From positions 1,282,762-1,346,761 of the forward strand of contig OY282459.1 of assembly GCA_958296285.1 (NCBI GenBank): a stretch of 64,000 nucleotides of DNA. The letters run 5' to 3'. The translations under genes and the position numbers were made by a program. This DNA comes from an uncultured Alphaproteobacteria bacterium. GTDB taxonomy: Bacteria > Pseudomonadota > Alphaproteobacteria > JAPOUT01 > G958296285. How positions within the stretch are numbered: the first letter of the stretch is position 1; every line of letters begins with the position of its first letter. Shown here piece by piece: positions 1,565 to 31,922 of this stretch. The notes below the pieces were generated by a model, which saw only the letters and a list, made by a program, of their open reading frames with translations, had not been told where the DNA came from and searched no databases.

Positions 1565-1574
1565 TGGGCGCGTT

Positions 1575-2408
1575 ATGAAGCCTCTGTCGGAAATCGCCGT
1601 TGCCGAGACCGTCAAGATCGGAAACGATCTGCCGCTCCGAATCATCGCAGGACCGTGCGCCTTGGAAAGCCGCGACCACGCGATGGAAATGGCGTCCGCC
1701 CTCAAAGAAATCGCCGAAAAAGTCGGCATCGGACTCATCTATAAAACCTCCTTTGACAAAGCGAACCGCACCAGCATGACAGGCAAGCGCGGAATCGGCT
1801 TGAAAGACGCCATCCCAATCTTCGCCGAAATCCGCGAGACATATCTGCCCGTCCTGACCGATGTCCATCTGCCGGAGCAATGCGCGCCTGTCGCCGAGGC
1901 GGTGGACGTCCTCCAAATCCCCGCTTTTCTCTGCCGACAGACCGATCTCCTTCTCGCCGCCGCGAAAACAGGCAAGCCGATCAATGTCAAAAAAGGACAG
2001 TTCCTCGCCCCATGGGATATGGAGCATGTCGCGCGTAAAATCCTCAGCGCCGGAAACGATCGGATCATGCTGACCGAGCGCGGCGTCTCTTTCGGATATA
2101 ACAGGCTCGTCTGCGACATGCGCTCCCTTGTCATTTTGCGCGAGACGGGCTGCCCGGTCGTCTTTGACGCGACTCACTCTGTCCAAGAGCCGGGCGGAAA
2201 GGGAAGCGCTTCGGGCGGAGAGCGCCGCATGGCGCCTGTCTTGGCGCGCGCGGCGGTCGCGGTCGGCGTGGCGGCTGTTTTTATGGAGACGCATCAGGAT
2301 CCGGACAACGCCCCATCGGACGGGCCGAATATGATCCGCCTCGCCGATATGGAAGCGCTCTTGCGACAGATCAAGGAATTTGACGCCATCGCCAAGAGGA
2401 AGTCGTGA
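1575..2408 (+). CDS. kdsA: 2-dehydro-3-deoxyphosphooctonate aldolase (KDO-8-P synthase)
   Basis: [40 protein letters not shown] and the [13 protein letters not shown] motif. Start trimmed to the ATG at 1575, 11 nt after the pyrG stop. Confidence 0.9.
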
Positions 2409-3694
2409 AGATCGCCGAAATCAGAGTTTTGGAGATTTTGGACAGCCGAGGGCGTCCGGCGCTGGAGGTTGTCGCGCATTTGGAGGGGAATGGGCGGTCG
2501 GTCAGCGCGCGCGCGGCTGTGCCGTCCGGCGCTTCCACAGGACGGCATGAGGCGCTGGAACTCCGGGACGGCGACAAAAAGCGCTATCACGGCGGCGGAC
2601 TCCTCAAAGCATGCGCATCAGTGGAGGGCGAGATCGCCGAGGCGCTCGCCAAAATCAATCCGCTTGATCAGCGCCGCATTGACGAGACGATGATCCAGCT
2701 GGACGGAACGCCAAATAAGAGTCGCTTGGGCGCGAACGCGATTCTCGGCGTCTCTCTCGCTTTGGCGAAGGCGGCGGCGAAAAGCGCCGAAAAGCCCCTT
2801 TTCTGTCATCTCGCCGGCGATGGCGTCTCCCTCCTATTGCCGCGCCCGATGATGAACGTCCTCAATGGCGGCGCTCATGCCGACAATGCTCTGGATATTC
2901 AAGAATTTATGATTGTCCCCGCCGGCGCGTCTTCATTTCGCGAGGCGTGCCGCATCGGGGCGGAAGTTTTTCACGCCCTCAAAGATCGCTTGAGAAAGGC
3001 GGGGCATAGCGTCAATGTCGGCGATGAGGGGGGCTTCGCGCCCGATCTCCGATCTTCGCGCGAGGCGCTGGATTTTTTGATGGAGGCGATAAGCGCGGCA
3101 GGCTATCGCGCGGGAAAACAGGTTTTTCTCGCTCTTGATGTCGCCGCGAGCGAGATTCTTACGCCCGAAACGCGCTATCATCTTAAAGGGGAAGACGCAA
3201 TCTTAACTGCCGAAGAGATGACCGATACTCTCGCCAGCCTTGTCCAAGATTACCCGATCCTCTCCATTGAGGACGGACTCGCCGAAGATGATTGGGCGGG
3301 ATGGCGGCATATGACCGCCGCTTTGGGCGAAAAAACGATGCTGGTCGGCGACGACCTCTTCGCGACAAATATGGCGCGCCTCAAGCGCGGCATAAAAGAA
3401 CAATGCGCGACAGCGATTCTGATAAAACCCAATCAGATCGGAACCTTAACCGAGACTTTGGATGTCGTGTCTCATGCGCGAAATTGCGGCTTCGCTTGCG
3501 TGATCTCGCACCGATCGGGCGATACGGAGGATACGACCATCGCCGATCTGGCTGTCGCTCTCGGCACAGGCTGGATCAAGACCGGAGGACTCTCGCGCTC
3601 GGAGCGGACGGCGAAATATAATCGTCTGATGCGGATAGAGAAGATGCTCGGCAATGACGCCCGCTATGCCGGACTTGAGGGAATCCCAAGATGA
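2405..3694 (+). CDS. eno: enolase
   Basis: [54 protein letters not shown] start overlaps the kdsA stop by 4 nt. Confidence 0.95.
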
Positions 3695-4590
3695 GTCTCG
3701 CGGCAGAAAGAGAACCTCTGAGAAAGCCCGCATGGATTCGCGCGCCCATTCCTTCAGGCAAAATCTACCATCAGACGCGCGCGCTGATGCGGGAACTCAA
3801 TCTGGCGACTGTCTGCGAGGAGGCGGCTTGCCCGAATATCGGGACATGCTGGAAAAGCGGACATGCGACAATCATGATTCTCGGAGAAATCTGCACCCGC
3901 GCCTGCGCCTTCTGCAATGTTCAGACCGGGAAGCCTCACGCGCCGGATCCGTTGGAGCCTCAGCGCGTGGCGGCGGCGCTGCGGCGTCTGCGTCTGCGGC
4001 ATCTTGTTATCACGTCTGTGGATCGGGATGATCTCGCCGATGGAGGCGCGGCGCATTGGGCGAAGGTTATCGGCGCGGCGCGGGCGGAATCGCCATCCAC
4101 GGTCATTGAGGCGCTGACCCCCGATTTTCGCAATAAGGGCGATGCGATAGAGCTCGTTCTGAAAACGCGTCCTGATGTTTTCAACCACAATTTGGAGACT
4201 GTGCCGCGTCTTTATGCGCGCATTCGTCCGGGGGCGCGATATTTTCATTCTCTGCGGCTTCTGCAGAGGGCGAAGGAGGCGAATCCGCGGCTTTTCACGA
4301 AGTCGGGGATCATGGTCGGTTTGGGCGAAGCCAAAGAGGAAGTCCTGCAACTGATGGACGATTTGCGCTCGGCGTCCGTGGATTTTCTGACGATCGGGCA
4401 GTATTTGCGTCCGACAAAAAATCACGCGCCTGTGGAGCGTTATGTTTCGCCTGACGAGTTCGCCTCTTACGCGACAATCGCTCGCGCGAAGGGCTTTTTG
4501 ATGGTCTCGTCCAGCCCTCTGACGCGCTCTTCCTATCACGCGGCCGAGGATTTCGCGGCTCTGAAGAAGAGGCGCGATGCCCAAGATTGA
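3691..4590 (+). CDS. lipA: lipoyl synthase
   Basis: Two Cys clusters: [13 protein letters not shown] and the radical-SAM [10 protein letters not shown]. Confidence 0.95.
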
Positions 4591-5026
4591 CGTCCGCCGC
4601 CGCGTTCCGCGTCCCGCCAAGAAGATTTTCGCGCTGGTCGCCGATATTGAATCCTACCCCGAATTTCTGCCGGGCTGCGCGCGGGCGAGGCTTTTTGATC
4701 GCAAGGAGAAGAATCCGCGCGCCGAGCTTGTTTTCGCGTCCAAACGGCTGATGCTGATTGGCTTGCCGGGCGAGATCGCTTTCACGAGCGCCGTCTCGCT
4801 GAACCCCGAAGCGCTGACGATAGAAGCGCGGCAGATAGAAGGACTCTTTGAGAGTCTCACCTGCATCTGGCGATTCAAGCGGATTTCCAAAACCTCCTGC
4901 GATGTGAATTGCGCGCTGCGCTTCGCCTTCCGCGAAACATGGCTGCATCTCGCCGTGACGCCTCTGTTGAAAATCGCGATCTGGCAGACCATCGCCGCTT
5001 TTGAGGCGCGCGCGCTGAAGGACTAA
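4577..5026 (+). CDS. SRPBCC-fold protein (RatA / COQ10-like cyclase-dehydrase family)
   Basis: 149 aa with [14 protein letters not shown], typical of the polyketide-cyclase/RatA family. This family commonly follows lipA in alphaproteobacteria. Confidence 0.7.
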
Positions 5027-5523
5027 CGGGCTTTATCCAAAATCTTATGCAGAAGCGCGAAACCGGCGATGACGGTTTCGGCGCGAACCTCGGCGCGTCC
5101 TTTGTTTGGAAAGCGGCAGAGTTCATTCAAGGTCAGGCTTTTCGCGGCGGCGGCGATATGCACCAAACCCGGCGGATGGGTCTCGCTTCCCCCGGGGCCT
5201 GCCACGCCTGTCACGGCAAGGGCGACATCCACCCCTGCCGCGCGCAGCGCGCCCTCCGCCATGGCGCGCGCGACTTCCTCGCTCACCGCGCCATGCTCTT
5301 GAAGCAGGTTTTTTGGGACGCTGAGAAATTTCATCTTCGCTCTGTTGGAATAGGTGGAGAAGCCGCAGTCAAAAACGCGGGAGGATCCGGGAATATCGGT
5401 CAGAGCCGCGCTGATAAGACCGCCCGTGCAGGATTCGGCTGTCGCGAGTCTCAGACCCGCCTCCTCCATGCGTTTGAGAATCTCGCGCGCTTGTCCTTCG
5501 GTTTCTCGCGGCAGAGCGATCAT
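5023..5523 (-). CDS. CinA-family C-terminal domain protein (nicotinamide-nucleotide amidohydrolase PncC-like)
   Basis: TAESCTGGLISAALTDIPGSSRVFDCGFSTYSNRAK and VTGVAGPGG motifs. Confidence 0.8.
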   Translation of the reverse strand: MIALPRETEGQAREILKRMEEAGLRLATAESCTGGLISAALTDIPGSSRVFDCGFSTYSNRAKMKFLSVPKNLLQEHGAVSEEVARAMAEGALRAAGVDVALAVTGVAGPGGSETHPPGLVHIAAAAKSLTLNELCRFPNKGRAEVRAETVIAGFALLHKILDKAR

Positions 5524-6260
5524 GGCAGAGGCTGGGAAGCCCGCGCGATCGCGATGAAAGACGCCGCGCGCAAACTCGCCCCTCCGACAAGCGCCCCTTC
5601 CACATGCGGCAGCGACAAAATCGCTTCGGCATTGTTCGGCGAAACCGATCCGCCATAGAGAAGGTGCGCCTCTCCATGCCCTTTCTTGCGCAGAGAATCC
5701 TTGATTTCCTCATGCATCGCCGAAATCTCCCGCCCATTGGGGGTGCGTCCTGTGCCGATCGCCCAAACAGGCTCATAGGCGACCGCCGCGCCATGACGAT
5801 AAGCCCTGTCGGCAAGAGACAGCAACTGCCTTTGAACAACGGCGGAAGCCTCGCCCCTTTCGCGCTCTTTTTCTGTTTCGCCAACGCAGAAGATTGGCAT
5901 AAGCCCTGCCCTCTCCGCCGCCAGAGCTTTTCTGCCAATGACGGCGTCATCTTCGCCCGCGGCGCGCCGCTCCGAATGTCCGACAATGACAGCCTTCGCG
6001 CCGAGATCGGCGAGCATCTCGGCGCTCACAGAACCGGTATAAGCCCCCGAAACTTCCGCATGACAATCCTGCCCCCCCAGAGTCAAGGGCGATTCGGCGA
6101 TCTCGGCGAAGGAGGCGAGAAGAGTCGCCGGCGGGCATAGGAGAATGTCGCAAGAGATCTCCTCGCCATGCGCCCGCAAAAAGCGCATGATCTCCTCCAG
6201 CTCGGCGCGACTCTCGCGCAGCCCGTTCATCTTCCAATTTCCGGCGATGAGCTGTCGCAT
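5520..6260 (-). CDS. tpiA: triosephosphate isomerase
   Basis: MRQLIAGNWKMNG, VIVGHSERR, AYEPVWAIGTG. Confidence 0.95.
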   Translation of the reverse strand: MRQLIAGNWKMNGLRESRAELEEIMRFLRAHGEEISCDILLCPPATLLASFAEIAESPLTLGGQDCHAEVSGAYTGSVSAEMLADLGAKAVIVGHSERRAAGEDDAVIGRKALAAERAGLMPIFCVGETEKERERGEASAVVQRQLLSLADRAYRHGAAVAYEPVWAIGTGRTPNGREISAMHEEIKDSLRKKGHGEAHLLYGGSVSPNNAEAILSLPHVEGALVGGASLRAASFIAIARASQPLP

Positions 6261-6338
6261 CAGCCAGCCTGCCCCGCTTGTCTGAACCCCTCAGAGAAGC
6301 CTATCATGCGGGCGGGACTATCGCATAGGGGTCTTGTC

Positions 6339-8231
6339 ATGCTGGATCGCCTCAGACGCGCCACCGCCCATTGGATGGCGCGCATTCTGATCGGATTGTT
6401 GGCGCTGAGTTTCGCCTTTTGGGGAGTCGGCGATCTTGTCGCGCCGTCTCGTGATCCGGCAATCGCCGAGGTCGGGGACGCCGTCATTCCGCAGACTGTC
6501 TTCCAGCGCTCGCTAAACATCCTCCGCGAAAATCTGCGACAGCAGGGGCGCGCCCTCGCTTTTGACGAAATCCGCCAACTCGGACTGGATCGGCAGGTTC
6601 TGAACCTGCTGACTCGTCAAGAAGCGCTGTCGCTCGGGGCGGCGGCGCTGGGTCTGGACATTTCAGACAGGCGAATCGCCGAGGAAATCCGCGATGATCC
6701 CGCCTTCCAAGGACCTTTCGGCGGATTTGATCGGCAGACCTTCCGCGTGATTCTCGCCGAAGCGGGCTTGAGCGAGCAGCGATTCGCCGAAGAGCGCCGC
6801 AAAGTGCATCTGCGCCGCCAACTCGCCGCGACTGTCCTCGCCTCGCCCCCCGCCTCCGATATTCTCGCCCGCGCGCTCATCAAGCACAGTTTGGAAAAGA
6901 GGATTTTGGAATATGCCCTCCTCCCGATCTCTCTCGCGCCGAAGCCAAAGAGCCCAAATGACGAAACGCTCAAAAAATTCCTAACCCGCGAGCCTTCTCT
7001 CTTCATTCGCCCTGAGCGGCGCGACATTCTTTTGTTGGAGCTGAAGCCGGAGCATTTTTTCTCGTCTCTCGCCGTCTCCGAAGACGAAATCCGCGCCGAT
7101 TACGACGAGCGGCGCATGAGTTTCCGAACCCCTGAAAAGCGCGAAGTAGAGCAAATCATCTTCGCCTCGCGCGATGAAGCCGATGCCGCCCATGCCCGCC
7201 TCAAGAAGGGCGTCTCTTTCGCCGCGATCGCCGGCGAGAAGGGTTTGTCGGAGGAAGATCGGAATCTGGGGCTTCTCTCTGAGCGGGAGTTTTTGTCGCC
7301 CTCTTTGGCGGAAGCGGCTTTCGCTCTCAAAAAGGGCGAAGTGAGCGCTGTCGTGGAGGGGCCTTTGGGGCCGGTTCTGCTGCGAGTTGCCAAAATCGCG
7401 CGAGGCGAGGAGCGAAGCCTCGCTTCCGTCCGCGATCGCGTCAGGAGAGACATTCTGCGCCGCAAATCCGCCGGCGAGATGGAGACCATGCGAAATATCG
7501 TGGAAGACGCGCTGGCAGGGGGCGCGTCTTTGCGCGAAGCGGCGTCTGATCATTCGCTGCCGATCTCGGAACTGAAGGGCGTCTCCGCCGATGGAACAAG
7601 CGCGAAAGGCGCGAAACTGCCCGAGAGGGAGGGGCTGCTTGCCGCCGCCTTCGCCGCCGCGGAACATGAAGAGAGCGCCGCGCGAGAAATGGAAGAGGGC
7701 GGATATTTTTGGCTGGAAGTGGAAAAAATCCATCCCTCGCGCATTCCGTCTTTTGACGAGATTAGGGACGAAGCGCGGAAAATCTGGCGGAAGGAAACGC
7801 GGCGTCTCGCTCTCATTCGGCTCGCGGCGGATCTTGCCGAGCGCGGAAATGGGGGCGAAGATTTGCGCGATCTTCTCAAGAAATATGACCGCGCGCCGTT
7901 GAAGACGCCCGAAATTGGTCGTTTTTTCCGAAGCGATGTTTTTTCGGCGGAGCTTGTGGAGGCGGCTTTCGCAAGACCCGAAGGTCGTTTTGTCGCCGGC
8001 TCTGCCGAGATCGGCGACAGCGTGGTTCTTGTTCGGACGGCGAAGATCGTCAAGCCCTCCCCTTCCCGCGAAGAGGAGAGCGCTTTTAGAGACGCGCTTG
8101 GCGCGCGCTTGGCGAATGAGTTTTTGGAGCAATATGTCGTTTTTCTTTTGGAGCGTTATGGCGTTGTCGTTCACGGCGATGTTTTGGAGAGCGCGGTTCT
8201 GTCTGGCGGCGGCGGCTTGCTCGCGCCATGA
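6339..8231 (+). CDS. ppiD: periplasmic chaperone / peptidyl-prolyl isomerase PpiD-like (SurA N-terminal domain family)
   Basis: MLDRLRRATAHWMARILIGLLALSFAFWGV N-terminal anchor, about 630 aa, located upstream of trpE. Start trimmed from 6168 to avoid overlap with tpiA. Confidence 0.75.
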   Translation: MLDRLRRATAHWMARILIGLLALSFAFWGVGDLVAPSRDPAIAEVGDAVIPQTVFQRSLNILRENLRQQGRALAFDEIRQLGLDRQVLNLLTRQEALSLGAAALGLDISDRRIAEEIRDDPAFQGPFGGFDRQTFRVILAEAGLSEQRFAEERRKVHLRRQLAATVLASPPASDILARALIKHSLEKRILEYALLPISLAPKPKSPNDETLKKFLTREPSLFIRPERRDILLLELKPEHFFSSLAVSEDEIRADYDERRMSFRTPEKREVEQIIFASRDEADAAHARLKKGVSFAAIAGEKGLSEEDRNLGLLSEREFLSPSLAEAAFALKKGEVSAVVEGPLGPVLLRVAKIARGEERSLASVRDRVRRDILRRKSAGEMETMRNIVEDALAGGASLREAASDHSLPISELKGVSADGTSAKGAKLPEREGLLAAAFAAAEHEESAAREMEEGGYFWLEVEKIHPSRIPSFDEIRDEARKIWRKETRRLALIRLAADLAERGNGGEDLRDLLKKYDRAPLKTPEIGRFFRSDVFSAELVEAAFARPEGRFVAGSAEIGDSVVLVRTAKIVKPSPSREEESAFRDALGARLANEFLEQYVVFLLERYGVVVHGDVLESAVLSGGGGLLAP

Positions 8232-9772
8232 GCGCCCCTTTCCCTGACGCCTCCGCTTTCCGCGACATTCACAATGCAGGCAAGACGCAGATCGTTCGGC
8301 TGACGCTGCCTGCCGATTTGGAAACGCCTGTCGCCGCGATGATCAAATTGGCGGCGGGGAAGCGCGGCGCGTTCCTTTTTGAATCGGTGGAGGGCGGAGA
8401 GGCTCGCGGACGCTATTCCGTCATCGGCTTCGCGCCGGACGCCATTTGGCGATCTTACGGCGCGAGATGCGAGATCAATCGGCAGGCGGCGCGAGACCCT
8501 GACGCTTTTGAGATTTTGAAAGAGCCGCCTTTGGACGCGCTTCGCCGTTTCATCGCGGAGTCGCGTTTTGATCTGCCTGACGGTTTGCCGTCTTTGTCGG
8601 CGGGTTTGTTCGGCTATATGGGCTACGACATGGCGCGTCATGCCGAGCGTTTCGGGTCTCCGCCGCCTGACGCGATTGGCATTCCGGACAGCGTTTTCGC
8701 GCGTCCGTCTCGTCTTGTGGTTTTTGATTCGGTCAGCGACACGATGATTTGCATTGTTCGCTCGTCTCCGCGCCGGGGGCGCTCGGCTGACGAGGCTTAT
8801 GACGAAGCCTGTCGCGCTTTGCGCGAGATGCGGACGGCTTTGCAGAGGCCTCTGATGCCGAAGGAGCGCGGCGAGGATAGCCAGAGCGATGAAGGCGATG
8901 AAAGCGGCGGGGGCGGCGCGTCTTCGTCTGTTTCCATGCCGGTGCCGCGGTCCAACATGCAGCGCGCGCTTTATTTGGAGAAGGTTCGGCGCGTTAAGGA
9001 GTATATTTTCGCTGGCGACATTTTTCAGGCTGTTTTGAGTCAGCGTTTTTCGGCGTCTTTTTCGCTTTCGCCCATGACGCTGTATCGGTCTTTGCGGCGG
9101 ATAAATCCGTCTCCTTATCTTTATTATTTGGATTTTGGGGATTTTTCGGTTGTTGGCTCAAGTCCTGAGATTTTGGTTCGGCTGCGCGAGGGCGTGGTGA
9201 CGATTCGTCCGATTGCCGGGACTCGTCCGCGCGGGGGGTCGGCGGCGGATGATCTTCGCATTGGCGAGGAGTTGTTGTCGGATCCGAAGGAGCGCGCCGA
9301 GCATTTGATGTTGTTGGATTTGGGTCGGAATGATGTTGGGAGGGTATCGGAGATTGGTTCTGTTCGCGTGACGGAGCGTTTCGCGCTGCAGCGGACGTCT
9401 CATCTCATTCACATTGTTTCCAATGTTGAGGGTGTTTTGCGGCGCGGTTTGGAGGCTTTGGACGCTTTGATGGCGGGTTTTCCTGCTGGGACGGTTTCGG
9501 GCGCGCCGAAGATTCGGGCGATGGAGATTATTGATGAGTTGGAGGATGAGAAGCGGAGTTTATATGCGGGGGCGGTGGGGTATTTTTCGGCGAATGGGGA
9601 TATGGACAGTTGCATTGCCTTGCGGACGGCGTTGGTTAAGGATGGGGTGATGTATGTTCAGGCGGGGGGTGGGATTGTGGCGGATTCGGAGCCTGCTTAT
9701 GAGTATCGGGAGTCTGTGAAGAAGGCGGAGGTTTTGTTTCGGGCTGCTGAGGCTGTTGGAGGCTCCCGTTGA
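8228..9772 (+). CDS. trpE: anthranilate synthase component I
   Basis: LFESVEGGE, GDIFQAVLSQRF, PYLYYLDFGDF, GTVSGAPKIRAMEIIDELE. Start overlaps the ppiD stop. The last 4 codons and the stop lie inside the repeat element. Confidence 0.95.
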   Translation: MSAPFPDASAFRDIHNAGKTQIVRLTLPADLETPVAAMIKLAAGKRGAFLFESVEGGEARGRYSVIGFAPDAIWRSYGARCEINRQAARDPDAFEILKEPPLDALRRFIAESRFDLPDGLPSLSAGLFGYMGYDMARHAERFGSPPPDAIGIPDSVFARPSRLVVFDSVSDTMICIVRSSPRRGRSADEAYDEACRALREMRTALQRPLMPKERGEDSQSDEGDESGGGGASSSVSMPVPRSNMQRALYLEKVRRVKEYIFAGDIFQAVLSQRFSASFSLSPMTLYRSLRRINPSPYLYYLDFGDFSVVGSSPEILVRLREGVVTIRPIAGTRPRGGSAADDLRIGEELLSDPKERAEHLMLLDLGRNDVGRVSEIGSVRVTERFALQRTSHLIHIVSNVEGVLRRGLEALDALMAGFPAGTVSGAPKIRAMEIIDELEDEKRSLYAGAVGYFSANGDMDSCIALRTALVKDGVMYVQAGGGIVADSEPAYEYRESVKKAEVLFRAAEAVGGSR

Positions 9773-10066
9773 GGGGGGTTTGGGGGGGCGGCGAGCCGCC
9801 GCGGGCATCTTTTTCATAGAGAGGCATTTTGGCTTTACCCCAGGGGAACTAATGCATAGAAGCTTGAGGTGAAGGGGGGGTTGGGGGGCTTGCCCCCCAA
9901 GAAAAACCAAGCGGGCGCAAGCCCGCTACGGGCGGCGGGCTTCTCGCGCACTTGCGCTACGCGCTGCGTGCGCTTCGTTGCGCCACGCCCGCCGACCTTT
10001 TCGGGGGGGATTCCCCCCGACCCCCCCTTTCTCAAGGGGGGCTAGCCCCCCTTGACCCCCCTCAAG
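9758..10066. repeat. Mosaic G/C-tract palindromic intergenic element, copy A (modules Y, Z-prime, X)
   Basis: Y 9758-9879 matches the reverse complement of 17449-17562. X 9998-10066 matches 17395-17454 in direct orientation and contains a perfect G6-CTAG-C6 palindrome at 10036-10051. Z-prime 9909-9994 holds nested hairpins (agcgggc-gcaa-gcccgct; ggcgggc...gcccgcc). Confidence 0.9.
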
Positions 10067-10084
10067 AGGTGCTATAGTCGCCCC

Positions 10085-10672
10085 ATGATCCTCCTCATAG
10101 ACAACTACGACTCCTTCACATACAACCTCGTCCATTTCCTCGGCGAACTGGGCGCCAAAACCAACGTCCAACGAAACAACGCCACATCAGCATCAAAAGC
10201 CCTCGCCAAAAAACCCCAAGCCATCATCATCTCCCCAGGACCCAAAACCCCAAACGAAGCAGGAATATCCCTAAATCTCATAAAAACCGCCGCCAAACAC
10301 AATATCCCAACCCTCGGCGTCTGCCTCGGACACCAAACCATCGGACAAGCCTTCGGCGCGAAAATCACCCGCGCCATCCCCACCCACGGCAAAATCAGCG
10401 CCATCAACCACAACAGCAAAGGAGTCTTCCAAAAACTCCCCTCACCCCTCCAAGCCACCCGATACCACTCCCTCATCATAGAAGAAAATACGCTGCCCCA
10501 ATGCCTCGCCATCACCGCGAGAACATCAGACGGAACAATCATGGGAATCCAACATAAAACCCTCAACGCCCACGGAGTCCAATTCCACCCCGAAAGCATT
10601 GAAACCGAACACGGACACAAAATCCTCCAAAACTTCCTCAAACTCGCAGGAATAAAAGGAATAAAAAAATGA
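10085..10672 (+). CDS. trpG: anthranilate synthase component II (glutamine amidotransferase, TrpG/PabA)
   Basis: MILLIDNYDSFTYNLVHFLGELG, GVCLGHQ, GVQFHPES. Start trimmed to the ATG at 10085. Confidence 0.9.
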   Translation: MILLIDNYDSFTYNLVHFLGELGAKTNVQRNNATSASKALAKKPQAIIISPGPKTPNEAGISLNLIKTAAKHNIPTLGVCLGHQTIGQAFGAKITRAIPTHGKISAINHNSKGVFQKLPSPLQATRYHSLIIEENTLPQCLAITARTSDGTIMGIQHKTLNAHGVQFHPESIETEHGHKILQNFLKLAGIKGIKK

Positions 10673-11694
10673 GCGAAAACCTCAAAAAAACCCTCGCGCT
10701 TATCGCGTCAGGCGAAAAACTCGCGCCCGCCCAAGCCGAAACCGCCTTCCAACATCTCATGTCCGGCGAAGCCAAAGACGCCGAAATCGGCGCGCTCCTC
10801 ATGGGACTCCATATGCGCGGCGAAACAACAGACGAAATCGCCGCCGCCGCCAAAATCATGCGCGCCGCCGCCACGCCCGTCCAAGCCCCGAAAAACGCCA
10901 TAGACCTCTGCGGAACAGGCGGCGATATGAAAGGAAGCCTCAATATCTCCACCGCCGCGTCTTTTATAGTCGCCGCCTGCGGCGTCCCGGTGGCGAAGCA
11001 CGGAAACCGCGCGCTCTCGTCTCAGTCAGGCGCGGCGGACGTCCTTTTGGCGCTCGGCGCTGAAACCGCCCTCCCGCCCCAGACCATCGCCCAATGCATC
11101 AAGGAAACGGGCATCGGCTTCCTCTTCGCGCCCTCGCACCACCCCGCCGCGAGACATGTCGCGCCGGCGCGCGCGGCGCTCGGCATCAGGACAATCTTCA
11201 ACCTCCTCGGACCTCTCTGCAATCCCGCCTTCGTCAAACGGCAACTGATCGGAGTCTTCGCGCCCGAATGGCTGACGCCCCTCGCCGAAGTGCTGCGCGA
11301 TTTGGGAAGCGAGCGCGTTTGGATCGTTCATGGCTCGGACGGGATGGACGAAATCACCCTTTCCGGCGAAACCCGCGCCGCCGAACTCAAAAACGGCAAA
11401 GTCCGCCCCTTCACGATCACGCCCGAAGAAGCAGGACTTCCTCGCGCTCCATCGGAGAGTCTCAAAGGCGGGACGCCTCAACAGAACGCGGCGGCTCTGC
11501 GGAGACTGTTGGACAGCGAAAGCGAAAACGGGGCTTATAGAGACGCTGCCGTTCTGAACGCGGCGGCGGCGCTCGTCATCGCGGAGAAGGCAGGAGATTT
11601 GCGCGAAGGCGCGGCGCAAGCCTCCGAATCTCTTTCCAGCGGACGCGCCGCCGACACCTTTCACGCCTTTCGCAATTTCACGAAGAAGCCATGA
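10669..11694 (+). CDS. trpD: anthranilate phosphoribosyltransferase
   Basis: DLCGTGGDMKGSLNISTAASFIVAACGVPVAKHGNRALSS. Confidence 0.95.
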   Translation: MSENLKKTLALIASGEKLAPAQAETAFQHLMSGEAKDAEIGALLMGLHMRGETTDEIAAAAKIMRAAATPVQAPKNAIDLCGTGGDMKGSLNISTAASFIVAACGVPVAKHGNRALSSQSGAADVLLALGAETALPPQTIAQCIKETGIGFLFAPSHHPAARHVAPARAALGIRTIFNLLGPLCNPAFVKRQLIGVFAPEWLTPLAEVLRDLGSERVWIVHGSDGMDEITLSGETRAAELKNGKVRPFTITPEEAGLPRAPSESLKGGTPQQNAAALRRLLDSESENGAYRDAAVLNAAAALVIAEKAGDLREGAAQASESLSSGRAADTFHAFRNFTKKP

Positions 11695-12503
11695 GGCATA
11701 TCCTCCAAACAATCCAAACCCGCAAGCGCGAGGAACTCGCCCGCGCGCGAAAAGACGCCCCCCCATCCGCGTTGGAAGCGCGGACAGGCGAAGCTCCCGC
11801 AATCCGTCTTTTCCGTGAATCTTTGGAAAAGAGGCGCGAGACAAGCCCCGCGATCATCGCCGAGATTAAAAAGGCGAGTCCTTCCAAGGGCGTCATCCGC
11901 GAGGATTTTGACCCCGCCGCTCTCGCGGAAAATTTGGAGAAAGGGGGCGCGGCGTGTTTGTCGGTGCTGACGGATAAGGATTTTTTTCAAGGCGCGGCGG
12001 AGCATCTTGGAGAGGCGAAAGAGGCGACCGCGCTCCCAATCTTGCGCAAAGATTTTCTGATAGACCCCTATCAGGCGCTAGAGAGCCGCGCTTGGGGCGC
12101 GGACGCCGTGTTGTTGATTATGGCTCTGCTGGAGCGCCAGCAAGCCGCCGAGATCGCCGCCGCCGCGAAGGAATGGGAGATGGACGTCCTCGCCGAAGCG
12201 CATGACGAGAAAGAGTTGGAAGAGGCGCTGCGCTTAGAACCCGACATGATCGGCATCAACAATCGGAATCTCAAAACTTTTGAAACCTCGCTGGATGTGT
12301 CTTTGCGTCTTGCGCGAGAGATTCCGCGAGACGCGCTCGCCATCGCCGAGAGCGGCATTGAGAGCCATGACGACATTTTGCGTCTTCAAGAGGCGGGGAT
12401 CCATTGCTTCCTCATCGGCGAAACTTTGATGCGCGCCGATGATCCGGCGCGGAAGATTCGGGAGTTGTTAGGAGAAGAGGATGAAGAAGACAAGCCATCT
12501 TGA
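11691..12503 (+). CDS. trpC: indole-3-glycerol-phosphate synthase
   Basis: IIAEIKKASPSKGVIREDF, LRKDFLIDPYQ, INNRNLKTFE. Confidence 0.95.
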   Translation: MRHILQTIQTRKREELARARKDAPPSALEARTGEAPAIRLFRESLEKRRETSPAIIAEIKKASPSKGVIREDFDPAALAENLEKGGAACLSVLTDKDFFQGAAEHLGEAKEATALPILRKDFLIDPYQALESRAWGADAVLLIMALLERQQAAEIAAAAKEWEMDVLAEAHDEKELEEALRLEPDMIGINNRNLKTFETSLDVSLRLAREIPRDALAIAESGIESHDDILRLQEAGIHCFLIGETLMRADDPARKIRELLGEEDEEDKPS

Positions 12504-12960
12504 CGAGCGCGGGCGGGTCTCTATGGCGGATGTCTCGGCGAAGAAGACGACCGAGCGCCGCGCCGAAGCCGAAGCCGTCATCATTATGCGCCCCGAAACG
12601 CTGCGCGCTCTTTTAGAAGGCGAAGGCAAGAAAGGCGACGCCTTCGCCGCCGCGAGAATCGGCGGCATCATGGCGGCGAAAAAAACCGCCGATCTCATTC
12701 CGCTCTGCCATCCCCTGCCGCTTGATCATATCGCTCTCCGCTTTGAGACAGACGAGAAAAAAGGACGAATCCGCATCGCCGCCGCCGTCAAAACGACAGC
12801 CCGAACAGGCGCGGAGATGGAAGCGCTGACCGCCGCCGCCATCGCCTCCCTGACGCTCTACGACATGGCGAAAAGCGAGGAGAAAGGGATACGGATAGAA
12901 AGTCTGCGTCTTCTTTCCAAAAGCGGCGGCAAATCCAAAGATTTTAACGCCGATGGATAA
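12481..12960 (+). CDS. moaC: cyclic pyranopterin monophosphate synthase
   Basis: MADVSAKKTTERRA and TADLIPLCHPLPLDHI. Confidence 0.9.
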   Translation: MKKTSHLDERGRVSMADVSAKKTTERRAEAEAVIIMRPETLRALLEGEGKKGDAFAAARIGGIMAAKKTADLIPLCHPLPLDHIALRFETDEKKGRIRIAAAVKTTARTGAEMEALTAAAIASLTLYDMAKSEEKGIRIESLRLLSKSGGKSKDFNADG

Positions 12961-14161
12961 TCTCATCTCTGTGGAAGAGGCTCTGCGCCTGATGGAGGCG
13001 GCGGCGCGTCCTCTGCCTAAAACATCCGCGCCATTAAGCGAGGCGGTCGGGCGCGTTTTGGCGAAAGAGATCAAGGCGCGTCTGACGCATCCGCCCTTCG
13101 CCGTCTCGGCGATGGACGGCTTCGCGCTCCATGCCGAAGATGCGCGGACTATCCCGGCGCGTCTGAACCTCATCGGAGAGTCGGCGGCGGGGAAGCCTTA
13201 TCAAGGCGAGGTCTCTCGCGGCGAAGCGGTAAAAATCCAAACAGGCGCGAGCATCCCCTCCCCTCTTGACGCCATCGCGCCCAAAGAGATAACGAAAACC
13301 GAAGGCGAGCATGTCAAGATTCTGAAACCTGTTCTGATCAAGCGGTTCATTCGAGAGGCGGGGCAGGATTTTTCTCGCCGGGAGGTTCTTCTTCCGAAAG
13401 GGCATCTGTTGGACGCGGCGGCGATCGGTCTGGCGGCGGCGGGCGGACATGACGCGCTTATCGTTCCGAGAAAGCCGCGCGTTTCGGTTTTGGCGTCAGG
13501 GAGCGAGCTTGTCGCGGCAGGCGTCTCGCCCAAGCGCGGGCAGATCGTCTCGTCCAACTCTTACGTTTTGACGGCGCTCTTGAATCAGATGAACGCGGAA
13601 GTTGAAGATTTAGGGATTGCGTCCGATTCTCTCGCCGATTTGGAAAGCGCGCTCGCCAAAAGCGCCGCGCCCGATCTTCTGATCACTATAGGGGGCGTTT
13701 CGGTCGGCGAGCATGACCTCATTCTGCCCGCTCTTCGCAAGCGGGGTTTTGAGACAATTCTGCATGGCGTGGCAATGCGTCCGGGAAAACCTTTTCTTTT
13801 CGGACGTTTGGGCAAGGCTTTTGTCATGGGTCTTCCCGGGAATCCTGTCTCGGCGCTTGTCTGCGCGCATCTTTTCATAAGACCTTTCCTGCGCGCGCTC
13901 GGCGGACATGACGCGCCCTATCAAGACAAAAGCGAATCCGCGATCCTTGACAAAAGCATCCCCGCCAATGGCGCGAGGCAGTCTTATCTGCGGGGACGTT
14001 TAAGAAAAGACGGAGACGCGCTTCACGTCCTCCCCTTCGCGCGACAAGACAGCGCGCTCCTTCGGGATATGGCTTATGCAGACGCGCTCATTTCGCGCCC
14101 TCCGTCAAGCCCGTCGGCCGAAGCGGGCGATGAAACTCGGATCTTGCGCCTCGCTTTCTAG
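12953..14161 (+). CDS. moeA: molybdopterin molybdenumtransferase
   Basis: PPFAVSAMDGFAL, SGSELV, ITIGGVSVGEHD, LPGNPVSALV. Confidence 0.9.
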   Translation: MDNLISVEEALRLMEAAARPLPKTSAPLSEAVGRVLAKEIKARLTHPPFAVSAMDGFALHAEDARTIPARLNLIGESAAGKPYQGEVSRGEAVKIQTGASIPSPLDAIAPKEITKTEGEHVKILKPVLIKRFIREAGQDFSRREVLLPKGHLLDAAAIGLAAAGGHDALIVPRKPRVSVLASGSELVAAGVSPKRGQIVSSNSYVLTALLNQMNAEVEDLGIASDSLADLESALAKSAAPDLLITIGGVSVGEHDLILPALRKRGFETILHGVAMRPGKPFLFGRLGKAFVMGLPGNPVSALVCAHLFIRPFLRALGGHDAPYQDKSESAILDKSIPANGARQSYLRGRLRKDGDALHVLPFARQDSALLRDMAYADALISRPPSSPSAEAGDETRILRLAF

Positions 14162-14607
14162 AGCAGCCCCGCCTCCGTCAAAGCCGCGCGCAGCTCTTCG
14201 GGCATATCGTCCGACAAGCCCGCTCTTTCCAAATCGGGGGGCGCGTCTTTCGCTTCCAAATAGCGCCAGCCCTGAAAAGCGCGGCGCGGGAAGGGCTTCG
14301 TCAGAACGAGTTCCAAATCCAAATCCAAAAGACAGCGCTTCACGCCGTCTCGCCCCTTATGCGGACGAATATCCAGAATCCTCTGCCGCGCCGCGATGAC
14401 GCCCCGAAAAACCCAATAAAGAGAGCCGTTCCGCGGCGAGCCGCTCGCCAAAATCTCTTCGCGCCGCTTCGGCGTCATGCGCGTGATGTGGAAGAGTTCG
14501 GGCGACTGCCCTCTCGCTTTTTGAGAGGCGATCTCGTCTCGCTGCCATCGCGCGAGTTCGGCGGGCGACCCCACGCCCACGCACAATTTGACCAAATGCA
14601 GCGTCAT
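14158..14607 (-). CDS. DUF1489 family protein
   Basis: MTLHLVKLCVGVGSPAELARWQ N-terminus typical of DUF1489. Start trimmed from 14667 to the ATG at 14607, which removes the overlap with mgtE. Confidence 0.6.
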   Translation of the reverse strand: MTLHLVKLCVGVGSPAELARWQRDEIASQKARGQSPELFHITRMTPKRREEILASGSPRNGSLYWVFRGVIAARQRILDIRPHKGRDGVKRCLLDLDLELVLTKPFPRRAFQGWRYLEAKDAPPDLERAGLSDDMPEELRAALTEAGLL

Positions 14608-14614
14608 AAAGACC

Positions 14615-15985
14615 TCACAGCAGAAAATACGCCGCCAAGCCCAAAAAGGCGAAAAAGCCGACAACATCCGTGACTGTCGTCAAAAACACGCCGGACGAAA
14701 TGGCGGGATCGGCGCCGATTTTCTCTAATGCCAGAGGGATCAGAATTCCAGCGAGCGCGGCGGTCAGCATATTGACAATCACGGCGGCGAAAAGAACCAT
14801 CCCAAGCGCGAAATTCTTAAACCACGCGCCTCCAATCACCCCCAAAATCACGGCAAGCGATACGCCATTCAGAACTCCCACGCCGATCTCGCGCATGATG
14901 ATCCTGCGCTGATTCGCCGCGACAAGCTCGCGAGTCGCCAGCGCGCGCACGGCGACGGTGAGAGTCTGAATGCCCGCCACGCCTCCCATGGACGCCACGA
15001 TCGGCATCAGAACCGCCAGCGCCACCATTCCGGCGATCGCGTCCTCAAAAAGCGCGATGACGACAGACGCCAAAATCGCCGTCATCAGATTGACGAAGAG
15101 CCATAAAAAGCGTCTGCGCGCCGATTCCAGCACCGTGCCGGAGAGTCTGTCGCGTCCGACTCCGCCGAGCCTCTTGATGTCTTCGCTCGCTTCTTCGGTG
15201 ATGACTTCCACGATGTCGTCCGCCGTGATCATGCCCATCAGCATGCCGTTCTGATCCACGACGGGCGCGCTGACCAGATTATATCGGCGGAAGGCTTCGG
15301 CGACATCTTCGCGGTCTTTATGGGCTTCTATCTTGAGAGGCTCGCCCTGCATCAGGCTGTTCAGAGACTCTTCGCGCTTGGCGCGGACGAGGCGGCTCGT
15401 CAAGACGCTTCCGATGAGTCTCCATGTCGGGCTGACGATATAGATTTCGTAGAAATCCTTCGGGAGTTCGGCGCTTTGGCGCAGATGGTCTATGACGCGT
15501 CCTACGCTCCAGAAGGCGGGGACGGCGACCAGATCGCGCTGCATGAGGCGTCCTGCGCTGTCTATCGGGTAATCCAGTCCGCGCTCAATATCGGAGCGCG
15601 CGCGGAGGGGAACGCGATCTAGGATATTTCTTCGGCGGGTTTCGTCCAGCCCTTCCACGAGGGCGAGCGCGTCATCGGAGGCGATTGTGGCGAGGGCGGG
15701 CGCGAGTTTTTCGGGGGCGAGGAGCGGGAGGATATCGGCGAGGACGCCTTCTTCCAGTTCCGAGAGGATTTCGGGCTTGAGTTCGTCATTGAGGAGGGTG
15801 ATGAGTTTGTGTCGTTCTTCGGGTTTGAGGAGTTCTAGGATTTCGGCGGCGTCTGCGGCGTGGAGTTCGTGGATTTGGTTTTGGAGTTTCGCGCGATGTT
15901 CCGCGGTGATGGCTTCGCGCGTTTCTTGGAGGATATTTGGGACGGGCGTTTCGGTGGGTTCCGTGGTGTGGGGGGGATTAGACAT
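14615..15985 (-). CDS. mgtE: magnesium transporter MgtE
   Basis: N-domain, two CBS-like segments and a C-terminal TM domain (GGVAGIQTLTVAVRALA, DPAISSGVFLTTVTDVVGFF). Confidence 0.9.
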   Translation of the reverse strand: MSNPPHTTEPTETPVPNILQETREAITAEHRAKLQNQIHELHAADAAEILELLKPEERHKLITLLNDELKPEILSELEEGVLADILPLLAPEKLAPALATIASDDALALVEGLDETRRRNILDRVPLRARSDIERGLDYPIDSAGRLMQRDLVAVPAFWSVGRVIDHLRQSAELPKDFYEIYIVSPTWRLIGSVLTSRLVRAKREESLNSLMQGEPLKIEAHKDREDVAEAFRRYNLVSAPVVDQNGMLMGMITADDIVEVITEEASEDIKRLGGVGRDRLSGTVLESARRRFLWLFVNLMTAILASVVIALFEDAIAGMVALAVLMPIVASMGGVAGIQTLTVAVRALATRELVAANQRRIIMREIGVGVLNGVSLAVILGVIGGAWFKNFALGMVLFAAVIVNMLTAALAGILIPLALEKIGADPAISSGVFLTTVTDVVGFFAFLGLAAYFLL

Positions 15986-16033
15986 ACGCCGCGCCTTTTT
16001 TGCTTTTTTGTCTGTGGCGTATATTTAGCCTAT

Positions 16034-16076
16034 GGGGGCTGATTTATAAAAGCCCCCGACTCTTTTGGATCGGGGG
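16034..16076 (-). terminator. Three-arm alternative hairpin (terminator-like) between the DUF1640-like stop and the mgtE start
   Basis: Minus-sense RNA reads cccccga-N10-tcggggg followed by cuuuuau. The same G-tract can instead pair as gggggcu-N10-agccccc. Confidence 0.35.
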
Positions 16077-16096
16077 CGAGTTTGTGAGATTTTGTT

Positions 16097-16426
16097 CTAG
16101 GATGCTAATTTGAGAAGGATTGCGCCTGTCAGAGTGAAATTCGCTATCATGAAGGTGATGGTGACTCCGAACATCCATTTTAGCAGGCGCATGTCGGCTT
16201 GGACTTCTCCGAAGCGTTTTTCCATGTCTATTCTGAGTTCTCCGATCTGCGCGTTCATATCGGCGCGGAGTTCTCCGACCCGTTCTTCCACGTTCCGAAG
16301 CCGTTCTTCTATGTTCCGAAGCCGTTGCTCATCGCGGTTGGCTTCCAGCGCTTCTATAGCGGCGGTGGCTTTGTGATCGCTGACTTTCGCTTCTTTGAGG
16401 GCATCATAGACTGCGACGAGGCTCAT
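16097..16426 (-). CDS. coiled-coil membrane-anchored protein (DUF1640-like)
   Basis: 109 aa with heptad-like repeats (RLRNIEERLRNVEERVGELRADMNAQIGELRIDMEKRFGEVQADMR), then LKWMFGVTITFMIANFTLTGAILL as a C-terminal TM. GC lower than neighbours. Confidence 0.5.
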   Translation of the reverse strand: MSLVAVYDALKEAKVSDHKATAAIEALEANRDEQRLRNIEERLRNVEERVGELRADMNAQIGELRIDMEKRFGEVQADMRLLKWMFGVTITFMIANFTLTGAILLKLAS

Positions 16427-16496
16427 GGTTTATCTCCTTATGGTTGTGTTTTTGTAGCATTTTTGGTTCTTCTGCCGCAATCTTTAGAAGAAAGAA

Positions 16497-16657
16497 AAGG
16501 GGGGTGTGGGGGGTCGGAGACCCCCCGCGAAAAAGGGGGGATCGGGGGGATTCCCCCCCGAAAAGCGCGTGGGTGGGGTGGGGAAAAGAGCATTTGCGAG
16601 CGAAGCGTAAGCGTAGCGAGCAAATGCGACCCCACCCACGCGCCCCCTGCTCGCAGG
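16497..16657. repeat. Mosaic palindromic element, copy B (G/C-tract hairpins plus Z hairpin)
   Basis: 16543-16657 matches the reverse complement of 17289-17410. Z hairpin 16565-16643 has outer arms gcgcgtgggtgggg / ccccacccacgcgc and inner arms gcatttgc / gcaaatgc. Confidence 0.9.
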
Positions 16658-16672
16658 AGCTACTGATTCAGA

Positions 16673-17131
16673 TCAAAGATCGCCAAGCCTGCGCCGAAAC
16701 ACTTCATCAAACTTTTCTAATCTCTCCTTGAACCAAGCATATTGCGCGCATCTGTGGTTCATATTTTCCCAATCAGCTTCCTCTTCCCAGCTTTGGGTAA
16801 TAGATGGGAATCCCCATTGCAGTGGTGGAGGTGTGCCAATTTCCCTCTCAATGGCTTCTTTATCTGCATGCAGTTGGTTAAAACATTCCTTAGCGTAAAG
16901 CATGTCGGTGTCGGGGACAGGAAAACTTTTGCCATAGATAGAAAACCTAACAGCTACCTTGCGCGGCGGCGTCTTATAAAAACACGCCCATATGCGAAAG
17001 CCTGCTCTCCCCATAGAGAATCCTAGAGTGCTGCCAGACGACCGACAACGCCCGCGCCCAATATGTGAGTCAGACGCTCTGAGGCACTTAAGCAAACCTT
17101 GCCAATAGAGGCGGTGTTCTTCTTTAGACAT
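16673..17131 (-). CDS. hypothetical protein, DUF4268-like
   Basis: 152 aa, about 49% GC in a counted 100-nt window. Pattern LYWQGLL ... VRFSIYG ... FNQLHADKEAIEREIG..LQW ... W..FKERLEKF resembles DUF4268 from memory. No search was possible. Confidence 0.45.
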   Translation of the reverse strand: MSKEEHRLYWQGLLKCLRASDSHIGRGRCRSSGSTLGFSMGRAGFRIWACFYKTPPRKVAVRFSIYGKSFPVPDTDMLYAKECFNQLHADKEAIEREIGTPPPLQWGFPSITQSWEEEADWENMNHRCAQYAWFKERLEKFDEVFRRRLGDL

Positions 17132-17149
17132 TTGTCATTTCCGCAAAAA

Positions 17150-17236
17150 TGGTGCGGTCGAGAAGACTCGAACTTCCACGGGGTTGCCCCCACAGCGCCC
17201 TCAACGCTGCGCGTCTACCTATTCCGCCACGACCGC
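17150..17236 (-). tRNA. tRNA-Leu (anticodon GAG), CCA encoded
   Basis: Reverse complement GCGGTCGTGGCGGAATAGGTAGACGCGCAGCGTTGAGGGCGCTGTGGGGGCAACCCCGTGGAAGTTCGAGTCTTCTCGACCGCACCA. 7-bp acceptor stem, anticodon loop TTGAGGG, long variable arm, GTTCGAGTC T-loop. Confidence 0.9.
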
Positions 17237-17288
17237 ATCCAAAACACAATTAGCAGAAATTAACCAACCCCTCAACCTCGCTAGAAAT

Positions 17289-17562
17289 CTTGCGAACAGG
17301 GGGCGCGTGGGTGGGGTCGCATTTGCTCGCTCGCTACGCCACGAGTGGCTTCTCTTCGCTCGCAAATGCTTTTTTCCCCACCCCACCCACGCGCTTTCGG
17401 GGGGATTCCCCCGAACCCCCTTTCTCAAGGGGGGCTAGCCCCCCTTGACCCCCCTTCACCTCAAGCTTCTATGAATTAGTTCCCCCTGGGGCAAACCCAA
17501 AATGCCTCTCTATGAAAAAAATGCCCGCGGCGGCTCGCCGCCCCCCCTTAACGGGAGCCTCC
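17289..17562. repeat. Mosaic palindromic element, copy C (modules Z, X, Y in inverted order)
   Basis: Z 17303-17394, X 17395-17454 (G6-CTAG-C6 at 17429-17444), Y 17449-17562. Y overlaps the last 4 codons and the stop of cysH. Confidence 0.9.
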
Positions 17563-31623: not shown

Positions 31624-31922
31624 TTGGCGTCCCCTTCCACGATTCTGACCATATGAGCGACTTTGCGAATCTGTCCGCGCATTTCGGGGCAGTCGGCGAC
31701 CGCGCGGCGCTTTCCGATTCTGCCCAAGCCCAGCGCGCGGAGCGTTCTGCGCTGCGTTTGAGGACGCCGTATCGCGCTGGCATATTGCTCCACGACAAGA
31801 TGCGTCTTTTTTTCAGGCGGCTTTGTCTTGCTCGCGGGTTTTTTCACGGGCTTTTTCGCGGCGGGCTTTTTCACGACCGCTTTTTTCTTCGCGGCGGGCG
31901 TTTTTTTCTTCTCGGCGCTCAT
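31620..31922 (-). CDS. rpmD: 50S ribosomal protein L30 with about 40-aa Lys-rich N-terminal extension
   Basis: Core [34 protein letters not shown], preceded by [39 protein letters not shown]. Confidence 0.9.

Follow-up and report, generated by a model that had tools for sequence, protein, structure and literature searches.

Mirror-image halos of strand-specific base composition around a palindromic repeat element in an uncultured alphaproteobacterium

The described systems closest to the one reported here come from yeast, cancer, mitochondria and bacteria. The subject is a palindromic repeat element between trpE and trpG of an uncultured Alphaproteobacteria bacterium, the flanks of which are G/T-rich on one side and C/A-rich on the other; it was analysed within a 64-kb stretch of DNA (contig OY282459.1, positions 1,282,762 to 1,346,761; hereafter the window, in whose positions all coordinates are given). 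Yeast chromosomes break at long inverted repeats and at triplex-forming repeats, and flanking genes up to 8 kb away then mutate more often, an effect that depends on the resection factor Sae2 (PMC3681665). This fragile-motif mutagenesis has in common with the present case a central structure-forming repeat, a two-sided mutation pattern decaying with distance and proposed single-stranded intermediates. For strand-coordinated mutation clusters at breaks in yeast and cancer, a switch of the affected strand at the centre is reported (PMC6786661). The flanks described below show this pattern of break-associated hypermutation, namely changes coordinated on one strand, a strand switch at a central point and a decay with distance. 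The yeast and cancer clusters differ in that they are laboratory or somatic mutation frequencies, whereas here the changes are fixed over evolution, near-saturated and located on a bacterial chromosome, A>G is as strong as C>T, and the breaks are something we infer.

Replication strand skew is the second relative. The leading/lagging skew of bacteria and the H-strand gradient of mitochondria likewise consist of C>T plus A>G on the single-stranded strand, graded with exposure, and the mitochondrial gradient has been explained by single-strand exposure with deamination of C and A (PMC3269012). The plus-to-minus switch at trpE/trpG even has the sign of a replication terminus. Replication skew, however, acts at the scale of replichores, whereas the skew described here reaches ~1.2 kb into each arm, exceeds the window background by a factor of about ten, is anchored on a repeat and occurs at two sites 7 kb apart.

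With regard to the repeat itself, Holder et al. 2015 define ITxF as a series of three adjacent blocks that can pair into G*G:C triads, the stems being 6-15 nt and the loops 1-6 nt long (PMC4666352). The BoxC/PIT/TMECO repeats treated in that paper resemble the present element in having two G-rich blocks and one complementary C-rich block with short loops, in being intergenic and often arranged in inverted pairs, and in lying in strain-variable regions. The element does not follow the TMECO/BoxC pattern, 5'-CCCTCNCCC N3-6 GGGNGAGGG N3 GGGNGAGGG (PMC4666352), since its blocks are homopolymeric (G6-7/C6-7) and come in the order G-G-C, whereas the CCCTCNCCC...GGGNGAGGG blocks of TMECO have the order C-G-G; for TMECO, rearrangement and variability are reported, and no compositional skew (PMC4666352).

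The palindromes of Escherichia coli that are cleaved by SbcCD are, like the present element, long chromosomal inverted repeats. The cleavage of long palindromes by SbcCD is established in E. coli, and Eykelenboom and co-workers are said to have found in 2008 that it yields a two-ended break repaired from the sister copy. The present element differs in being imperfect at its first site (arms about 80% complementary) and in having its halves 630 nt apart at the second. We know of no mutational halo reported for the E. coli SbcCD palindromes. REP/BIME and MITE-type repeats, finally, are also mosaics of short non-coding GC-rich hairpin modules with terminal inverted repeats, multi-copy, placed at gene ends and able to supply stop codons; the element is short, non-coding, bounded by terminal inverted repeats and present at two sites in 64 kb. 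To our knowledge no member of these families has kb-scale skew halos. An earlier note on this DNA, made from the sequence alone, likewise knew of no repeat family of this kind, and a literature search of incomplete coverage (skew with repeats, SbcCD palindromes, REP/MITE hotspots, triplex with skew, mutation clusters) brought up no kb-scale strand-specific halos at bacterial repeats. The fixation of such changes to near-saturation around a dispersed bacterial repeat appears to be new, while the chemistry and the laboratory analogues are known.

Two mirror-image halos and the element between their arms

Base composition was followed on the + strand as keto skew, (G+T-A-C)/n, in 300-nt windows. 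The 559 such windows making up the rest of the 64-kb window gave a mean of -0.027 with a standard deviation (sd) of 0.087, and the background GC skew is slightly negative throughout. The highest and lowest keto skews, +0.43 and -0.49, correspond to z = +5.2 and -5.4. At trpE/trpG (site 1) the G+T excess sets in at ~8500 and grows to ~9800, with keto skew climbing to +0.40, GC skew up to +0.55 and AT skew of about -0.3 to -0.5. The sign switches within 9800-10000 in sliding profiles, and the C+A excess to the right (keto skew down to -0.49, GC skew -0.5, AT skew +0.48) is back at background level by ~11000-11300. The left halo (8500-9772, G/T-rich on the + strand) covers the 3' two-thirds of trpE (8228-9772), and the right halo (10063-11300, C/A-rich on the + strand) the whole of trpG (10085-10672) and the first ~600 nt of trpD (10669-11694). 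The left-minus-right contrast is 0.83, against no more than 0.38 across ~270 kb of unrelated loci. All reading frames in the arms are intact.

The course described in the earlier note, a G+T excess building from about 8500, inverted inside a palindromic element and followed by a C+A excess decaying by about 11000, is seen in these profiles. Its base counts proved exact (9601-9700, A15 C14 G42 T29; 10201-10300, A39 C40 G10 T11; 12601-12700, A25 C30 G30 T15), and its statement that G+C stays constant is roughly right, although the arms (0.55-0.58) lie about one sd below the background of 0.592 +/- 0.035.

A second mirror-image halo, which the earlier note did not contain, was found 7 kb away between mgtE and cysH (site 2). 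It is G/T-rich at ~15300-16460, where keto skew reaches +0.43, and C/A-rich at ~17560-18700, where it falls to -0.42. The left halo (15300-16460, G/T-rich on the + strand) takes in the N-terminal part of mgtE (14615-15985, - strand), intergenic DNA and a small open reading frame (ORF; 16097-16426, - strand); the right halo (17548-18700, C/A-rich on the + strand) takes in cysH (17548-18312, - strand) and the end of a sirC-like gene (18300-18845, - strand). The second copy of the element thus has the same halo as the first. Since the skew returns to baseline within ~1.3 kb and an identical switch follows 7 kb away, a replication terminus, for which the earlier note had looked to a skew continuing at replichore scale, is ruled out.

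The site 1 element (9757-10084) is an imperfect palindrome of ~300 nt composed of hairpin and G-run modules; its ends pair in the fold. As the earlier note had proposed, it is palindromic as a whole: 9770-10070 is predicted to form a single long hairpin of -97.9 kcal/mol (z = -7.3 against shuffles). By blastn, copies occur at two places only in the 64 kb, 9757-10062 and 16497-16658 with 17288-17563, the modules being 80-92% identical between the sites. At site 2 the two halves are inverted repeats of each other; the left half (16497-16658) matches both the site 1 element and 17288-17456, and the right half (17288-17563) supplies the last codons and the stop of cysH. Between them lies an unskewed interior (16673-17236, - strand) consisting of a cargo ORF (16673-17131, DUF4268, third-position G+C (GC3) 0.45) and an ancestral tRNA-Leu(GAG) gene (17150-17236).

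A regular-expression scan of the whole window showed seven G-G-C modules of the form G5-7 / 2-4 nt / G5-6 / 3-7 nt / C5-7, confined to the two sites, with a typical layout of G6-N3-G6-N4-C6 (for example GGGGGGGTTGGGGGGCTTGCCCCCC and GGGGGGTCAAGGGGGGCTAGCCCCCC). The left half of site 1 carries one, G7-TT-G6-CTTG-C6, on the + strand (9874-9898), a potential intrastrand triplex or hairpin, and the right half two on the - strand (10003-10027 and 10036-10061). At site 2 two lie on the + strand in the left half (16499-16526 and 16535-16559) and two on the - strand in the right half (17399-17420 and 17429-17454). By sequence the modules fall within the ITxF definition as potential intrastrand triplexes, apart from one with a 7-nt second loop (TCGGAGA), just outside it. 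In all four arms (4/4) the same polarity rule holds: the arm 5' of the strand bearing the G-G-C modules is G/T-rich on that strand.

The earlier note had argued that, both flanking genes of site 1 being on the + strand, coding-strand or codon bias could not explain both arms. For site 1 the argument is sound, but site 2 is no independent test of orientation. It is the exact reverse-complement configuration of site 1 and replicates the pattern without testing its independence from gene orientation; the use of its - strand genes as proof of such independence was rejected, the pattern being symmetric under reverse complementation with the same polarity. As genes and element have the same polarity at both sites, models linked to transcription retain a small probability.

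Strand-specific transitions in the arms

The skew resides overwhelmingly at third codon positions, where it is near saturation. The third-position counts are G58 T35 C6 A1 in trpE 9428-9727 and C62 A32 G3 T3 in trpG; for the two - strand genes, counted on the coding strand, they are G50 T41 C7 A2 in cysH and C55 A28 G11 T6 in the N-terminus of mgtE (codons 15686-15985). At 4-fold sites, per 250 nt, the skew of the right arm runs through -0.95, -0.81, -0.74, -0.44 and -0.28 at site 1 and through -0.95, -0.86, -0.69, -0.39 and -0.17 at site 2, down to background over 1-1.25 kb, with C or A at 39/40 and 41/42 of the sites in the 250 nt nearest the element. In the left arms the skew stays at +0.6 to +0.8 for about as far (trpE +0.80 to +0.65 out to ~1250 nt), and the gradient length is ~1-1.25 kb in all four arms. 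The particular strength at 4-fold sites and the decay with distance which had been expected are both present. This combination of third-position and 4-fold location, near saturation and gradient is the mark of mutation pressure, not of selection. From the 4-fold counts of the right arms, in which A/G is about 10 and C/T about 20 on the + strand, a simple equilibrium argument points to a roughly 10-20-fold increase of the two transitions on one strand. How left and right arms differ in shape was not counted as evidence, being confounded by background C-richness and saturation.

Relatives free of the element were found by a search with CysH, which gave two syntenic genomes of ~60% amino-acid identity, L066 (1.61-Mb, circular) and L067; the element-free pair is deposited as ERZ25070185 ctg137342_25x_c and ERZ22155170 ctg25803l. 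Their trpE and trpG overlap by 4 nt or sit 45 nt apart, and the gap between cysH and mgtE is only ~250 nt and holds the same tRNA-Leu. Neither relative has G-G-C modules or a halo at either junction, |skew| being at most about 0.1. A search with TrpG gave two further strains, L013 (1.72-Mb circular contig) and L014, which are syntenic with the window and 96-99% identical to it in DNA; six proteins from the left end of the window each differ from their L013 counterpart by 1-4 residues. Both halos are present in L013 and L014 as well, that is, in three strains in all. A complete genome of this lineage stands under ENA ERZ19489113, contig s55.ptg000057c. The halo accordingly goes with the element: two further outcomes that would have spoken against the earlier interpretation, copies without skew and element-free orthologues with the same composition, were not observed.

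Codon alignments of eleven genes allowed substitutions to be polarised wherever the window departs from a base shared by L066 and L067, each change being given for the + strand. The ratio of C>T+A>G to G>A+T>C was 26:1 at the 3' end of trpE and 30:4 in its middle (56 vs 5 over 8801-9772 as a whole) and 25:13 in the N-terminus of mgtE. It was reversed to the right of the element, with 4:44 in trpG, 5:20 in the 5' part of trpD and 8:44 in cysH. The controls were near 1:1, with 54:53 in ppiD, 63:65 in trpC-moaC-moeA and 48:32 in pccA (arms against controls, Fisher p = 9e-8 and 8e-15). A halo anchored on the element and produced by C>T plus A>G on the strand that points its 3' end at it, as the earlier note had proposed, is borne out by these ratios. 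A>G is enriched as strongly as C>T. Transversions, too, yield mostly the favoured bases, which is what saturated sites should show. At codon positions 1 and 2 the shift has the same direction (left arms, 17:8 and 17:8; right arms, 6:32 and 5:17). The pressure extends to amino acids: at conserved columns of TrpG the window protein has 25 replacements, and of those that one base change can account for, 10.3 belong to the G>A/T>C type vs 0 to the reverse type, while the forward/reverse ratio over 119 homologues has a median of 0.78 and a maximum of 7. For TrpE and CysH the same test had too few events.

Selection on mRNA or codon usage, horizontal acquisition of the arms, and an assembly artefact were considered as ways in which such composition might arise apart from mutation pressure; even taken together they are extremely unlikely. 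The C/A-richness of the downstream genes at their 5' ends, found at both sites, is what selection has in its favour. Codon bias is nevertheless ruled out by the sign flip within one operon, by a near-saturation of 4-fold sites extending over ~1.2 kb and by the directional amino-acid changes; acquisition of the arms is rejected since they consist of syntenic core genes with a smooth gradient; and an artefact is ruled out by the agreement of three independent assemblies and the intact frames.

Possible origins of the halos

The halos probably stem from some process in which the strand with its 3' end toward the element is repeatedly exposed as a single strand. C>T plus A>G on the 3'-facing strand with a decay over ~1.2 kb is the pattern left on DNA that has spent time as a single strand, the H-strand gradient of mitochondria being an example, and the symmetry about the element is as expected from two 3' tails; the single-strandedness itself, the deamination chemistry and the trigger are what we infer from this pattern. 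As the trigger, we tentatively favour breakage at the element with subsequent 5'-3' resection, the sister copy serving for repair; its weight is well below even, and its lead over replication arrest is small. The structured palindromic element would break recurrently, and resection would expose ~1-1.3 kb on each side of the strand with its 3' end toward the element. On the exposed strand, deaminated cytosines would appear as C>T and deaminated adenines as A>G, and these changes would become fixed through fill-in synthesis, with repair from the sister copy. Over evolutionary time, synonymous sites would come near to saturation and some amino-acid replacements would be pushed through, while purifying selection would keep the genes intact. 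The strains differ at the centre of the element, where the middle modules are swapped at site 1 and the cargo is exchanged at site 2, and this is consistent with breakage and repair there.

Several points weigh against breakage and resection. In bacteria that rely on RecBCD or AddAB, both strands are degraded up to Chi, so that the 3' tail would start away from the break and not peak there. Adenine is deaminated far more slowly than cytosine, yet the enrichment of A>G equals that of C>T. The breaks and the single-stranded DNA at the element are read indirectly from the sequence, and the two sites available have the same polarity of gene and element. The three strains differ from one another no more densely in the arms than outside them, and the differences are mixed in direction: the window strain is more skewed at 15/18 transition differences in the site 1 arms, and L013 at 9/12 in the right arm of site 2. 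The process may be continuing in both lineages, the between-strain data being not securely polarisable. The short module alone, moreover, is insufficient. A 25-nt pattern, GGGGGGKTTGGGGGGCTWGCCCCCC, was found in 51 metagenomic contigs (L015-L065) with a G+C of 37-67%; it can be written GGGGGG(T/G)TTGGGGGGCT(T/A)GCCCCCC (e.g. L022:274-298 and L028:2523-2547) and is often preceded by a conserved GAGCGnAGCGAGG plus 3 nt. No skew halo lies on either side of it in any of them (51/51), and either the full palindromic cluster or a property of the lineage in replication or repair must be required. The broad spread of so specific a module suggests a mobile or convergently selected structure.

The polarity rule obeyed by all four arms bears on a trigger without a break. 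If the G-G-C strand, folded as a hairpin or triplex, blocked the polymerase when serving as template, replication would be arrested and the same chemistry would act in a daughter-strand gap on the template 5' of the block, which is the adjacent arm, the leading-strand gap persisting until repriming on one side and an Okazaki-sized lagging-strand gap forming on the other. The halo length of ~1-1.25 kb matches the sizes of Okazaki fragments and post-replication gaps, which counts for such an arrest. An unskewed interior between the halves of site 2 is also predicted and is seen, although this does not discriminate, as the interior is recent cargo differing between strains. Arrest would require that both the leading and the lagging polymerase be blocked, and the single modules of other organisms are without a halo. 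The motif class is reported to block DNA polymerase in vitro (earlier work cited in PMC4666352) and is linked to ~3-kb variable regions in E. coli, but the same paper gives no in vivo effect of the motifs in E. coli and no in vivo triplex footprint (PMC4666352). On balance, replication arrest is only slightly less probable as the trigger than breakage with resection.

The between-strain data and the direction of the transitions bear also on an error-prone polymerase that resynthesises the arms, its misincorporations, and not deamination, giving the strand-specific transition signature. The direction, the decay and the symmetry would fit equally well, and the repeat-induced mutagenesis of flanking DNA in yeast needs Pol zeta (PMC3681665). 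The usual mispairs (template G with dTTP, template T with dGTP) made on a 3'-tail template predict the opposite skew, however; going by the errors that polymerases generally make, dATP opposite template C and dCTP opposite template A would have to be the prevailing mispairs, and divergence between strains is not raised in the arms. Such a polymerase is an improbable source of the halos.

Of the mechanisms put forward in the earlier note, breakage with resection and fork stalling both fit all four arms, whereas transcription of the annotated genes fits only two, trpE and cysH. These upstream genes run toward the element, and their coding strand is G/T-rich at both sites, as would follow if convergent transcription ended at the hairpins of the element and formed R-loops with deamination of the non-template strand, the effect being self-reinforcing through G-rich RNA. 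One terminator-like hairpin is predicted in the element (two overlapping scanner matches), which is not above chance expectation, and the equal polarity of genes and element means that site 2 does not count against models of this kind. Yet the downstream genes trpG and mgtE run away from the element; strong antisense transcription over ~1.2 kb would be needed, no promoter-like site was predicted by a consensus scanner in 9600-10300, and the near-equal extent and magnitude of arms with two different causes would be a coincidence. We hold R-loops to be a slightly more doubtful source than error-prone synthesis.

A>G changes as frequent as C>T and near saturation are more than spontaneous adenine deamination readily gives, and the halo is specific to one lineage although the short module is widespread. 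Both observations would suit the editing of the flanks by a targeted mutator, for example a single-strand DNA deaminase, that is drawn to the element or to stalled intermediates. No candidate gene for it is known in the 64 kb of genome covered, and a single-stranded substrate of the same polarity would still be needed, which makes the enzyme an addition to resection or arrest as triggers. As an explanation in its own right it ranks slightly below R-loops and well above selection, transfer or artefact.

On a wider reading, to which we give somewhat less than even weight, a mutation process specific to this lineage and anchored on the repeat has changed the codons of housekeeping genes over ~1.2 kb to either side of every such element, which would make it the 'germline' equivalent, in evolution, of the strand-coordinated clusters at breaks. 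In that case the genome of an uncultured bacterium would show directly where single-stranded DNA from resection or replication gaps recurs, with what polarity and over what tract length, and the lineage would lack, or have gained, a factor that decides whether structured repeats are mutagenic. If the halos are footprints of recurrent single strands at structured repeats, no earlier record of such events in the evolution of a bacterial chromosome would exist, and tract length (~1.2 kb), polarity and relative rates (roughly 10-20-fold) could be had from them without experiment. They would show that essential neighbours such as trpE, trpG and cysH can be altered by a small dispersed repeat in their codon usage and even in their protein sequence, and it is tempting to relate this to the old question of whether potential triplex or hairpin repeats do anything in vivo. 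Regions of this kind would mislead analyses of codon usage, horizontal transfer and phylogeny. The contrast with halo-free relatives and organisms points to a tractable genetic difference in repair or replication.

Ends of the element, strain mosaic and other features of the window

TrpE and CysH, which are unrelated, both owe their final four codons and stop (GGSR*) to the outer end of the element (9757-9772 at site 1, 17548-17563 at site 2), the C-terminal tails found in the relatives being replaced by these element-derived ends. CysH is truncated directly after the conserved ECGIH motif. No credible ORF lies inside the element. At its right end (10052-10085), TTGACC is followed after 15 nt by an extended -10-like TGcTATAGT ending 7 nt before the ATG of trpG, which has no Shine-Dalgarno sequence at normal spacing; to judge from these motifs, the right end may act as an outward promoter giving a leaderless trpG mRNA. 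The pair was missed by the consensus scanner because of its 15-nt spacer.

No flanking direct repeat at the element ends was noticed on reading the sequences, no systematic search having been made for one, and no partner transposase was identified within the 64 kb. A search of a genome contig collection with the core palindrome AAGGGGGGCTAGCCCCCCTT gave only 12 unrelated terminator-like hairpins, all without a halo; the element end GGAGGCTCCCGTTRAGGGGGG had no match in metagenomes; and six-frame peptides of the element, compared with proteins in order to find copies in the related 1.72-Mb genome, gave no hits.

The interior of site 2 looks like an insertion hotspot, with cargo that differs between strains beside the ancestral tRNA-Leu(GAG): the DUF4268 ORF in the window strain and a glutathione S-transferase (GST) gene in L013 (L013:16895-17569), both unskewed. 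The small ORF at 16097-16426, between mgtE and the element, encodes 109 aa with coiled-coil/transmembrane character and a weak DUF7310 hit; in the corresponding region of L013 (16009-16526), an extra shorter ORF (61 aa, no Pfam hit) lies beside its homologue. The third-position skew of the window ORF, +0.36, is weaker than that of mgtE, though mgtE lies farther from the element, which suggests a later arrival or homogenisation with copies elsewhere.

Divergence among the three strains is mosaic, with 176 differences per 800 nt at 700-1500, 3-20 per 500 nt at 1500-9500 and 20-44 per 500 nt at 11000-14500, which indicates recombination between strains. Low divergence in the arms was rejected as a special feature, as the whole stretch of 1.5-9.5 kb is low within this mosaic.

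Three further regions of the window deviate in composition or carry recognisable features. A T-rich patch at 31620-32120, with AT skew down to -0.83, is due to long Lys/Ala/Pro-rich tails of - strand ORFs, which from their translations we take to be a ribosomal-protein cluster beside secY. A match to the Rfam DUF3800-VI RNA motif (44873-44932, - strand; 40.6 bits, gathering score 35) lies in a mildly C/A-rich patch. An ORF of 1912 aa (58254-63992, - strand) contains a subtilase (Peptidase_S8) domain near residues 1268-1541, and its 3' part is mildly C/A-rich on the + strand (-0.2).

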